This document shows positions 445 through 54,814 of a stretch of 64,000 nt of DNA, piece after piece. Position 1 is the stretch's first letter; each line of letters begins with the position of its first letter. The DNA is taken from assembly GCF_003334305.1 (NCBI RefSeq), contig NZ_QOWS01000025.1; one strand, 5' to 3'. The DNA comes from Escherichia coli (lineage in GTDB: Bacteria > Pseudomonadota > Gammaproteobacteria > Enterobacterales > Enterobacteriaceae). The position numbers and the translations under genes are program-made. The notes beneath the pieces are model-generated. The model was not told where the DNA came from, did not search any database, and saw only the letters and a list, made by a program, of their open reading frames with translations.

Positions 445-993
445 TTAGTTGAGCGCTTCCGGCCACGGGAACTGTTCCGCCGTAAGTTCCGGCGTGTGAT
501 AATAATTTTGTAGTGCTTTAATGAAGCGTGCCGGGCGTTCAGGAATGCCGTTTGCTAGGTAATCCATCACCTGCGCATGTACCCGCCGTTGAAACACCAC
601 ACGATCCGGTTCGAAGTCGCCTTCCAGATTGTCGCAACTGACGTTAAACGGATATCCCGCCGCCACACAGAACAACCAGTCGAGTGCCTGCGGCTTCACT
701 TCAACATCTTCAAACTGGCTTTGCGTTTGGGCATCACGCCCATCCGGGCAATACCAGTAGCCGAAATCAACCAGCTCACGGCGCGCTTTTCCGGCAATAC
801 ACCAGTGCGAAATCTCATGAATTGCGCTGGCATAAAAGCCGTGGGCAAAGACAATTCGGTTATACGGTACTTCCGCATCAGCAGGAAGATAGATCGGTTC
901 GTCGTCGCCTTTAATCAGACGGGTATTAAATTCATCGGCAAAGCAGCTATTAAAAATTTCAATCAACTGCTCATAGTGGTGTGTACTGTTCAT
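445..993 (-). CDS. epmC: EF-P hydroxylase EpmC (YfcM)
   Basis: 182-aa ORF; translation recognised as YfcM/EpmC; conserved synteny with yfcA. Confidence 0.85.
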   Translation of the reverse strand: MNSTHHYEQLIEIFNSCFADEFNTRLIKGDDEPIYLPADAEVPYNRIVFAHGFYASAIHEISHWCIAGKARRELVDFGYWYCPDGRDAQTQSQFEDVEVKPQALDWLFCVAAGYPFNVSCDNLEGDFEPDRVVFQRRVHAQVMDYLANGIPERPARFIKALQNYYHTPELTAEQFPWPEALN

Positions 994-1802
994 TAGTTCA
1001 TCCCCAACCAGTGGAGGATCTCCTGTCCGTGGCTATCGTAAAGTAATTTGGCACTCATCACCGCCGAGACGATAACAATCATCGGGCGGATCAGCTTTTG
1101 TCCTTTGCTCAACACCAGCCGTGAACCCATGCGCGCGCCGAGGAACTGCCCCACCAGCATGACAAAGCCCGTCGCCCAAATCACTTTGCCGCCGAGAATA
1201 AACAGCAGCAGACCGCCAATGTTTGACGTTGCGTTGAGTAATTTGGCGTGAGCCGTGGCTTTGGCGAGGTTGAATCCGCACAGCGTAACGAAGGCCAGCG
1301 CGTAAAACGATCCGGCAGCCGGGCCAAAGAATCCGTCATAAAAACCGACGCAGCCACCGGCAATTAACGCGAAGGGTAAACCGTACATCCGGCGCTGGCG
1401 ATCTTCTTCACCCAGCTTTGGCATCAGCAAGAAATAGAGGCCGATACAAATCACCAGAATGGGCAAAATCTGCCGTAAGACATCAGCCTGAACGTACTGT
1501 ACCAACAGTGCGCCGCTCATTGAGCCGACAAAGGTCATGGCAATATTGAGTTTCTGATCGCTTAAACTAACCACTTTGCGGCGAATAAAGTAGATAGTGG
1601 CGGAAATAGAGCCGCCGCAGGCTTGCAGTTTATTGGTTGCCAGCGCATTAGCGGGAGACATCCCCGCTGCCATCAATGCCGGAATGGTGAGTAACCCACC
1701 GCCACCGGCAATCGAGTCGATAAATCCCGCCAGCATGGCGACAAAAAAGAGAACTCCCAGCAACAGCGGGGAAACCATAAACAGGCTATTAAACGTTTCC
1801 AT
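993..1802 (-). CDS. yfcA: TauE/SafE family inner membrane protein YfcA
   Basis: 269-aa hydrophobic ORF with Gly-rich membrane segments; start overlaps mepA stop. Confidence 0.85.
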   Translation of the reverse strand: METFNSLFMVSPLLLGVLFFVAMLAGFIDSIAGGGGLLTIPALMAAGMSPANALATNKLQACGGSISATIYFIRRKVVSLSDQKLNIAMTFVGSMSGALLVQYVQADVLRQILPILVICIGLYFLLMPKLGEEDRQRRMYGLPFALIAGGCVGFYDGFFGPAAGSFYALAFVTLCGFNLAKATAHAKLLNATSNIGGLLLFILGGKVIWATGFVMLVGQFLGARMGSRLVLSKGQKLIRPMIVIVSAVMSAKLLYDSHGQEILHWLGMN

Positions 1803-2626
1803 TAGATCACGTGCTCATCCAGTAGCGCCTGGCAGGAAGGCGGCAACGGAGGCGGTGTCTTCTTCTCAGGCTTTGTTGTTCCCGGTTTTGGAGGTGCAAA
1901 CCAGCTTTGCAGTTCTGCCCCGCAACCATCGCCTGGTGGCGGTAAAGGTTGATCTTCACACTCCAGACTATCGGCAGGACAACGTAATCGTACATGCATA
2001 TGCGCGCGATGCTGGAACCAGGGTCGCACTTTGCGCAACCAGTCGCGATCGGTGCCCGCATCAAGGCAAAGTTGTTGTTTAATCGCCGGATTAACAAAAA
2101 TGCGTGTGACGTCTTTGTCCTGGGCGGCGAGTTTGATCAAGCTGAAAATTTCTGGCTTCCACAGCGTGGAGACAACGTGTTTACCGTCGCGGGAAACTAA
2201 GTCCAGTGCTTGCGGGCGCAAGAGCTGCGCGGAGGTCCAGCGAGTTTTCGGCAGTTGCAGAAAGATATCGACATCCAGTCCGGTCTGGTGGCTGGCATGA
2301 CCGCCGTTGAAACGCCCACCAGCGGGCATCCCCATATCGCCAATCAGCACCGTACCCATGCCCAGATTGCTCACCTGGCTACTCAGACGCTGGATAAACA
2401 TCACCAGATCCGGGTGACCGAAATAGCGACGCTGATCGGTACGCATGACCTGATAATGTTCGGACTGTATCGGCAGCGTGTCAGCACCGACGATACAGCC
2501 ATTAGAAAAACTGCCTATCGATTGTGCGCTACCCGGCACAGGTTGGGTTATTTTTTGCCACGGCGTCGCTGCCAGGCTAGCGCTACTGGCAAGCAGAGCC
2601 AGCAGCGCAATCGCGGTTTTGTTCAT
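1802..2626 (-). CDS. mepA: Penicillin-insensitive murein DD-endopeptidase MepA
   Basis: 274-aa ORF with N-terminal signal peptide ([19 protein letters not shown]); recognised as MepA. Confidence 0.9.
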
Positions 2627-53752: not shown

Positions 53753-53776
53753 AACCGCTCCGGGTTAATCAGGAGA

Positions 53777-54814
53777 TCATCTGAAATCCGTCAGTTGAAC
53801 AACCGTCTCACGCGTAAGACGTTGAATAAGGGCAGATAAAAGTTGCTCCATCTGCAAAATGTCGCGGCAATCGGCAATCGATGCCGCGCAATGTCCGTGG
53901 CGGGTGGCAGGCCCCATTACCACTGTGGGTACGCCAGTACCGGTTAAGTGCACCGCTCCGCCGTCCGTGCCGCCGTTGCTGAACATATCTGCCTGCAACG
54001 GTACGCCAATTTCAGCCGCCACGGTTTCGATCCAGGCGGTAAGTTTTGGCGGCGCAATCAGTGACTTGTCGCTTAACACCAGCATCGGGCCGTTACCAAT
54101 CTGGCGATGGTTAGCCGCGCCATAATCAAAGTTTTTCGCCCAGCAGGCGGTATCCAGCACAATGGCGACGTCCGGCGACACCGCGCGGGTAGCGGTTTGC
54201 CCACCGCGTAATCCCACCTCTTCGCTGGAACTTGCCACCAGCCACACCTCCGCAGGCAGTTCGGCATCGTGCAGCTCACGTAGTAACGTCACCAGCAGAT
54301 AGCAACCGAGGCGATCATCAAAGGCTTTCCCCATCACCCGCTGGTGAGGGAGAACCTGAAAAGTTGTATCAAAGGTGACGCGATCGCCTGGACGAATTCC
54401 CGCCTGCATCACTTCGTCATACGAGCGCGCACCAATGTCCACGCGCATGGCGCTGACGTCATTCCCCTGCCGGTCGCCGTCAAGCAGGCCTGGAATTTTG
54501 CACTCTTCACGGGTGGTGATGCGCACCGGCTGCAGCTGGCGGGCAGCCATGCGCACGTTGCCAACCGGCAGCACATCAATTGCCCCTTCGCGGGAGATGC
54601 TACGCACCATAAATCCCACTTCGTCCATATGGGCGCAGATCATCACCTTCGGACCTGTCGATTCATTGAGGCGGATCAGCACCGATCCCAGACCATCAAA
54701 TCGCACTTCTTTTTGCAGGCGATCCGCTTCTTCCAGCAGGATCTGCCGCACTTCCTGTTCCGAGGAGGCGATCGCATCTGCCTCGCTCAACGCTTTTAAT
54801 AGCGATAAATCCAT
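53777..54814 (-). CDS. ypdE: M42-family aminopeptidase YpdE
   Basis: 345-aa ORF; start overlaps ypdF stop. Confidence 0.85.

Follow-up and report, generated by a model that had tools for sequence, protein, structure and literature searches.

Overlapping stop and start codons in a 64-kb stretch of Escherichia coli: ordinary operon junctions that probably couple translation to differing degrees

In a 64,000-nucleotide stretch of Escherichia coli DNA (from contig NZ_QOWS01000025.1; this whole stretch is called the window below), seven pairs of neighbouring genes overlap at their stop and start codons. The pairs mepA/yfcA, yfcA/epmC, fadI/fadJ, emrK/emrY and ypdF/ypdE overlap by 1 nt, and yfcR/yfcQ and yfcQ/yfcP by 4 nt (Table 1). 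We think it likely that the partners in these overlapping pairs share transcripts, and that their translation is coupled by termination-reinitiation (TeRe), with a strength that depends on the junction. We infer the coupling at these particular junctions, and the ranking of their dependence on it, from features of the sequence and from work on other gene pairs. The phenomenon itself is textbook knowledge, and the instances are already catalogued for K-12: the entries for these genes in the K-12 table of Huber 2023 list all seven pairs, with identical distances. The overlaps are real but ordinary, and already known; they are useful for operon prediction and have little importance beyond annotation.

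As a reference, we carried the RefSeq annotation of E. coli strain H15 (NZ_CP010178.1, 2276089-2340088) onto the window, which differs from H15 by 15 substitutions and no indels across the 64 kb. (The first 20 kb of the window has a match in all 5426 complete E. coli genomes, with H15 at 100%.) All 55 complete coding sequences (CDSs) carried over from H15 have proper start and stop codons and are intact in the window. With an intact yfcU and the csc sucrose genes beside a tRNA-Arg gene, the strain is not K-12. Adjacent genes on the same strand form 35 pairs in the window, and we read each tight junction among them on the coding strand. (Below, spacings with a minus sign are overlaps, and ‘>’ gives the order of the genes on the coding strand.)

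An earlier note on this DNA had placed shared or overlapping nucleotides at 993, 1802, 15440, 31445 and 54814. These coordinates are exact, and all five junctions are 1-nt overlaps that read TAATG on the minus strand; the shared use of TAA as stop codon has no statistical significance (P about 0.2). The same note had described yfcO, yfcP, yfcQ and yfcR as a series of overlapping genes, which holds for yfcR>yfcQ and yfcQ>yfcP (ATGA, 4 nt) but not for yfcP>yfcO, where we found a +1 spacer. Both partners of each of the seven overlapping pairs are RefSeq CDSs that are intact in the window, and their starts are the best available by position and by Shine-Dalgarno (SD) sequence. In every case the ATG is the first in-frame start past the preceding stop, and it has the best SD score among nearby candidates, with downstream alternatives that are weaker or have no SD at all.

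The spacings are clustered to a degree that is not expected by chance. Among the 21 same-strand pairs spaced between -20 and +35, five are at -1 and two at -4, with P values of about 3e-5 and 6e-6 if spacings are modelled as uniform; that any single spacing value reaches five among 21 pairs has P = 0.0016. The bare motif is not diagnostic, since TG follows nine of the 48 A-ending stop codons, and four of these nine have no gene starting there. Overlaps in the window are nevertheless no denser than is typical of the E. coli genome. Of the 2987 unidirectional pairs of E. coli K-12, 707 (24%) have spacings of -8 to +6, with -4 and -1 the commonest values; in the window this range holds 10 of the 35 pairs, against 8.3 expected (P = 0.31). 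The remark in the earlier note that such overlaps are ordinary for operons is thus borne out.

The two ATGA junctions (6850-6870 and 7335-7355, minus strand) share an identical 19-nt module, GGTGGATTACCAATGAAAA, which makes the yfcR>yfcQ and yfcQ>yfcP overlaps copies of one module and not independent events. The DNA flanking the two modules has no detectable similarity; YfcQ and YfcR are 33% identical, and both proteins end in VDYQ.

Where two genes overlap, there is no space between them for a terminator followed by a promoter, and any transcript that extends past the end of the upstream gene would have to include both partners. The earlier note had taken the overlaps as evidence for co-transcription. 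For two pairs the literature documents it, with fadIJ described as an operon whose products form a hetero-octameric complex (PMC9329746) and emrKY as an EvgA-controlled operon (PMC6393483); the other pairs appear in cluster or operon listings. In K-12, mRNA levels in the Burkhardt 2017 table, which omits mepA, yfcA and epmC, are alike for prmB (228), aroC (182) and yfcL (164), and are consistent with one transcript spanning this cluster. A consensus scan of the minus strand found no promoter-like sites in the 300 nt ahead of any TAATG junction, a scan with little power, as its hits are at shuffle level. A scan for terminators at the same junctions found weak terminator-like hairpins only, with hit counts at the shuffle expectation. 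The literature that we searched contained no map of transcription start sites for these junctions, and the SMRT-Cappable-seq supplements do not contain these gene names.

All seven junctions fall within the spacing range for TeRe (about -8 to +6 nt). At such a junction, a ribosome terminating at the stop codon would already sit on the next start codon, and could reinitiate there without fresh recruitment of a 30S subunit. Coupling of this kind falls off steeply as distance grows and works best at spacings of -4 to +3. In E. coli, reinitiation is usually enhanced by an SD ahead of the restart codon, which is not obligatory, however. TeRe coupled four of the five native overlapping E. coli pairs that were tested, and how much the SD contributed differed from pair to pair (PMC6728339).

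The SD content of the junctions is the basis on which we rank their predicted dependence on coupling. There is no SD within 3-12 nt of the yfcA start (-3.1 kcal/mol), emrY has a weak one (GGAC, -3.0 kcal/mol) and mepA, which follows aroC at +3, has none (-2.8 kcal/mol). With no usable SD, yfcA and emrY (through their overlaps) and mepA (through its +3 spacing) would depend on coupling to a high degree. The dependence would be intermediate for epmC, yfcQ and yfcP, whose SDs together span -5.5 to -6.2 kcal/mol (about -6 kcal/mol for yfcQ and yfcP). It would be lowest for fadJ (-9.3 kcal/mol) and ypdE (-7.4 kcal/mol), where de novo initiation probably adds to reinitiation or dominates it. In synthetic constructs, expression of yfcA, emrY and mepA would probably fail if these genes were cut from their upstream cistrons.

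The junctions are well conserved within E. coli. Ungapped 61-mers of the fadIJ, emrKY and ypdFE junctions are found in 4567, 5228 and 5419 of the 5426 genomes, respectively, and even the most divergent fadI/fadJ junction variants are still annotated at -1. For comparison across the Enterobacteriaceae, we collected 80 loci by a YfcA scan, with one genome per species, and modelled aroC, mepA, yfcA, epmC and yfcL by tblastn. The mepA>yfcA junction is at -1 in 73 of the 80 species (TAATG in 53, TGATG in 20). As the stop codon varies while the -1 spacing stays, it is the geometry of this junction that is conserved rather than its sequence. The yfcA>epmC junction ranges from -4 to +16, with -1 in 57 species, -4 in 14 (Kosakonia and its group, plus a few more) and small positive gaps in eight, and aroC>mepA is at +2, +3 or +4 in 77 of the 80. 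The non-overlapping epmC>yfcL spacer, in the same genomes, has 13 different lengths of 9-90 nt. Overlaps are thus the more stable kind of junction compared with spacers, in counts that related species inflate.

The lack of an SD at mepA and yfcA also holds over the 80 species (median -2.8 kcal/mol for mepA and -3.1 kcal/mol for yfcA), which leads to the prediction that both genes rely on reinitiation family-wide. The SD-like element of epmC lies within yfcA, and the glycine codon that supplies it is GGG in 77/81 and GGA in 4/81 cases among these species, but never GGC or GGT. This codon usage points to a synonymous constraint on the epmC SD inside yfcA.

On a small scale, these comparisons also illustrate the evolution of junction geometry, with -1 and -4 one substitution apart at TAATGA. 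The yfcA>epmC junction of E. coli has this hexamer (TAA, then an in-frame TGA), so a change from -1 to -4 needs one substitution, and in Lelliottia a single TAA>TCA change turns -1 into -4. At the mepA-yfcA junction, Buttiauxella warmboldiae and Cedecea colo have an insertion of about 130-150 nt, which splits the junction directly after ATGGAATG. This insertion contains an internal hairpin (GGAAAAA...TTTTTCC), and looks like a small mobile repeat.

Several points weigh against coupling at these junctions. The 80 species are phylogenetically related, so that the counts overstate independent support, and the exceptions to the -1 spacing of mepA>yfcA are clustered in one Buttiauxella/Cedecea-like group, at +11/+12, to which the two genomes with the insertion belong. 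The consensus promoter scan was uninformative as to internal promoters (its hit counts equal the shuffle expectation), and we also count the absence of mepA, yfcA and epmC from the mRNA table on this side. The seven overlapping initiation regions show no sign of masking: when we folded positions -99 to +30 around each start in silico, after Huber 2019, their median P(unpaired) was 0.53 versus 0.49 for 27 leading genes (p = 0.48). The strong SDs of fadJ and ypdE make independent initiation likely too at these genes. The native bioB-bioF pair of E. coli has a 4-nt overlap like the ATGA pairs of the window but is uncoupled, its downstream gene initiating de novo (PMC6728339), so that overlap is no proof of coupling. 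Furthermore, the translation efficiency (TE) ratios of overlapping pairs are about as variable as those of non-overlapping pairs (Kolmogorov-Smirnov p = 0.06; PMC5318159), and overlap is thus no guarantee of equal output. In the literature that we searched, we found no direct test of coupling for any pair in the window.

Some of these points (the variable TE ratios, the uncoupled bioBF and the strong SDs of fadJ and ypdE) also favour neutral compaction, in which overlaps are by-products of start and stop codon mutation, without functional coupling, and the downstream genes initiate de novo. An ATG gives three of the four bases of ATGA, TAATGA contains both states, and the one-base change in Lelliottia leads from one to the other; a 2025 review (Brown and Wade) credits the abundance of -4 overlaps to ease of evolution. 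The yfcA>epmC spacing drifts among -1, -4 and +2/+5/+16 in related genera with no visible consequence, and interacting proteins are encoded by only two to three of the seven pairs. Against this reading, the mepA>yfcA junction is kept at -1 in 73 of 80 species while nearby spacers vary, and mepA and yfcA have no SD from which to initiate de novo. The putative synonymous constraint on the SD inside yfcA, and the coupling of four of the five native pairs that have been assayed (PMC6728339), also argue against it. We consider neutral compaction an unlikely explanation of the overlaps.

A further possibility is coupling by RNA unfolding, in which a structure locks the downstream start until the upstream ribosome melts it and so admits new 30S subunits. 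Some operons are known to work by this mechanism, and in the window the fadJ SD, placed in the loop of a 6-bp hairpin that is weak, is predicted to be the least accessible of the seven (0.34). As a group, however, the seven regions are predicted to be no less accessible than the 27 leading genes (see the medians above), with no difference among overlapping, close and leading genes, and yfcA and emrY have no SD to which a fresh 30S subunit could bind. As the folding predicts no difference in accessibility, we rejected structure-gated coupling as evidence, and we regard RNA unfolding as a very improbable mechanism at these junctions. It is more improbable still, and barely worth entertaining, that the overlaps stem from longest-open-reading-frame start calls with true starts further downstream: K-12 yfcS>yfcR, whose ATG is out of frame in this strain, and the ypdA/ypdB and yfcP/yfcO overlaps, which need maximal TTG starts, look like cases of this kind (see below), but at the seven confirmed junctions the ATG scores best, the downstream options have weaker or no SDs, and for most of the 80 species the alignments of YfcA and EpmC orthologues begin at residue 1.

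If TeRe does operate at these junctions, an extension of it can be imagined for aroC>mepA>yfcA>epmC, which we put forward as a doubtful idea. Because mepA (+3) and yfcA (-1) have no SD in the 80 Enterobacteriaceae species, this chain could be a ‘ribosome relay’, in which mepA and yfcA are translated almost wholly by ribosomes passed on by aroC. The small RNA GcvB represses aroC translation (PMC11878033), and its effect would then spread along the chain. Such a relay, if true, would extend GcvB repression of aroC translationally to the peptidoglycan endopeptidase MepA, the TauE-family membrane protein YfcA and the EF-P hydroxylase EpmC, and would make these unrelated functions respond to amino-acid status with no control at the level of transcription.

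In the trp operon, the stop and start codons of trpE-trpD and of trpB-trpA overlap, and the proximal cistron promotes translation of the distal one. Direct genetic evidence backs the trp pairs, each of which codes for subunits of a single enzyme; in the subunit sense, their only counterparts in the window are fadIJ, emrKY and, arguably, the yfc fimbrial subunits. In geometry, the pairs of the window are identical to the -1 (TAATG/TGATG) and -4 (ATGA) pairs of Huber 2019, Huber 2023 and Brown and Wade 2025, and several of them, like the Huber pairs, have their SD inside the upstream coding region. Unlike those coupled pairs, most pairs of the window do not encode subunits of one complex. The E. 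coli pairs assayed by Huber (five in 2019, three in 2023) were hyfHI, astDB, ydbH/ynbE, menDH and bioBF, and include no pair of the window.

FadI and FadJ form a hetero-octameric trifunctional enzyme (PMC9329746), and the structure of FadJ has been solved (PDB 6ysv, 8bnr). In the entries of Huber 2023 Table S2 for the pairs discussed here, EmrK-EmrY and the yfc fimbrial subunits are flagged as complexes, and mepA/yfcA, yfcA/epmC and ypdF/ypdE as ‘not’. The entry for fadI/fadJ is flagged ‘no complex’, at odds with the description of the hetero-octamer and with 6ysv and 8bnr. As far as this entry goes, the flag probably understates, slightly, the enrichment of complexes reported in Huber 2023.

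The fadIJ and emrKY pairs can furthermore be compared with the homologous K-12 pairs fadBA and emrAB, which are likewise two-gene operons and encode the same kinds of complex (a trifunctional beta-oxidation enzyme and an MFS tripartite pump). In contrast to the overlaps of fadIJ and emrKY, fadB>fadA has a +9 spacer with a UAAGGAG SD, and emrA>emrB a +16 spacer with an AGAGGUG SD. The gene order also differs between the fad operons, being alpha-beta in fadBA and beta-alpha in fadIJ. Paralogous operons can thus take either layout, an overlap or a spacer with a strong SD. A natural example of emrY parted from emrK is found in the E. coli O15:H12 strain 2273-PO3, which has an IS1 directly upstream of emrY and lacks emrK, evgA and the 5′ portion of evgS.

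Table 1. Positions in the window of the overlaps, the other tight junctions and the SD sequences that are discussed in the text.
Feature	Position	Strand	Remarks
yfcA stop TAA / epmC ATG, 1-nt overlap TAATG	991..995 (shared base 993)	-	read directly; RefSeq agrees
mepA stop TAA / yfcA ATG, 1-nt overlap TAATG	1800..1804 (shared base 1802)	-	read directly; RefSeq agrees
fadI stop TAA / fadJ ATG, 1-nt overlap TAATG	15438..15442 (shared base 15440)	-	read directly; RefSeq agrees
emrK stop TAA / emrY ATG, 1-nt overlap TAATG	31443..31447 (shared base 31445)	-	read directly; RefSeq agrees
ypdF stop TAA / ypdE ATG, 1-nt overlap TAATG	54812..54816 (shared base 54814)	-	read directly; RefSeq agrees
yfcR stop TGA / yfcQ ATG, 4-nt overlap ATGA	7349..7352	-	read directly; RefSeq agrees
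yfcQ stop TGA / yfcP ATG, 4-nt overlap ATGA	6864..6867	-	read directly; same distance in K-12
epmC SD-like GGGGA inside yfcA C-terminus, 7 nt before ATG	1001..1005	-	dG -5.5 kcal/mol
fadJ SD GGAGGC inside fadI C-terminus, 6 nt before ATG	15447..15452	-	dG -9.3 kcal/mol
ypdE SD CGGGAGA inside ypdF C-terminus, 6 nt before ATG	54821..54827	-	dG -7.4 kcal/mol
aroC stop TAA, 3-nt spacer, mepA ATG	2624..2632	-	direct reading; tight, non-overlapping; head of the mepA-yfcA-epmC chain
yfcP stop TAA, 1-nt spacer, yfcO ATG (TAAAATG, +1)	6324..6330	-	direct reading; K-12 also +1
ypdA stop TGA, 14-nt spacer holding SD CGGAG, ypdB GTG	49633..49652	+	direct reading
evgL 9-codon upstream open reading frame, TGA overlapping evgA ATG (ATGA)	32998..33027 (overlap 33024-27)	+	sequence reading
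ypeD (29 amino acids) / mntH, 20-nt overlap (-20) covering the mntH start	61954..61973	-	absent from the list in the earlier note

An overlap of ypdA and ypdB, which the earlier note had listed as well, is not present. The two genes are separated by a 14-nt spacer, and the annotated GTG of ypdB at 49650 has a CGGAG SD 6 nt upstream; from this GTG, YpdB begins MKVIIVEDE. We rejected a TTG start at 49632, which would give a TTGA overlap, as its SD is poor (-2.5 kcal/mol, versus -6.1 kcal/mol for the GTG). A search of E. coli diversity for a spacer indel to decide between TTG and GTG did not help, as the region is too conserved. In E. coli strain I3, our 81-nt ypdA-ypdB query matches as two pieces over 157 nt of the record, as would be expected if some 76 nt were locally duplicated where ypdA meets ypdB. 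At yfcP>yfcO, the sole route to an overlap would be a TTG start for yfcO at 6341, which we rejected because it has no SD.

The K-12 annotation has yfcS and yfcR overlapping by 1 nt (TGATG; K-12 locus L003, 7585). At this junction (7856-7876, minus strand), the window has one extra base, GGGAGGG versus GGG-GGG in K-12. Because of this 1-nt indel, the ATG annotated for yfcR in K-12 is out of frame here, so that yfcR must start at the downstream ATG, which has a strong SD (GGGAGGG). Probably, this downstream ATG is the true start of yfcR, and the K-12 yfcS/yfcR overlap is a longest-open-reading-frame artefact. Some catalogued overlaps thus seem to be artefacts of start-codon calling, with yfcS/yfcR in K-12 and ypdA/ypdB in the earlier note as examples.

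Four further junctions are absent from the list in the earlier note: evgL>evgA (-4), ypeD>mntH (-20), aroC>mepA (+3) and evgA>evgS, which has a +4 spacer. The evgL reading frame (MLHCKGNNL*) is preceded by a GGGAGAAGGGAG stretch and corresponds to b4781 of K-12; it has no annotation in the H15 RefSeq record, and among the K-12 entries of Huber 2023 it is tabulated at -4. The ypeD/mntH overlap is a longer one with an upstream reading frame, and overlaps of this type could have a regulatory effect on the translation of mntH.

The strongest terminator-like hairpin of the region (12 bp, of which nine are G-C, with a T-tail) lies at 16886-16912 on the minus strand, just past yfcZ and before fadI. 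As read from the sequence, this hairpin fits with a separate unit that begins with fadI. The first 17 kb contains 18 promoter-like consensus hits, and seven of them, on both strands, are packed into 270 nt (12149-12420) of the 674-nt gap between sixA and yfcV; this is probably the regulatory region, rich in AT, that serves the yfc fimbrial operon. The fimbrial usher gene yfcU (8646-11288, minus strand), which is a pseudogene in K-12, is an intact 880-codon gene in the window.

The csc sucrose genes (a transporter, a kinase, cscA and a LacI-type repressor) occupy 22590-28453, between the tRNA-Arg gene and a 5′-truncated dsdX. At this tRNA gene (argW), K-12 presumably has a prophage remnant. Some convergent gene ends are also very tight: cscA and cscR end 7 nt apart (26989-26997), and ypdC and fryA 2 nt apart (51254-51257), gaps that leave no space for separate terminators.

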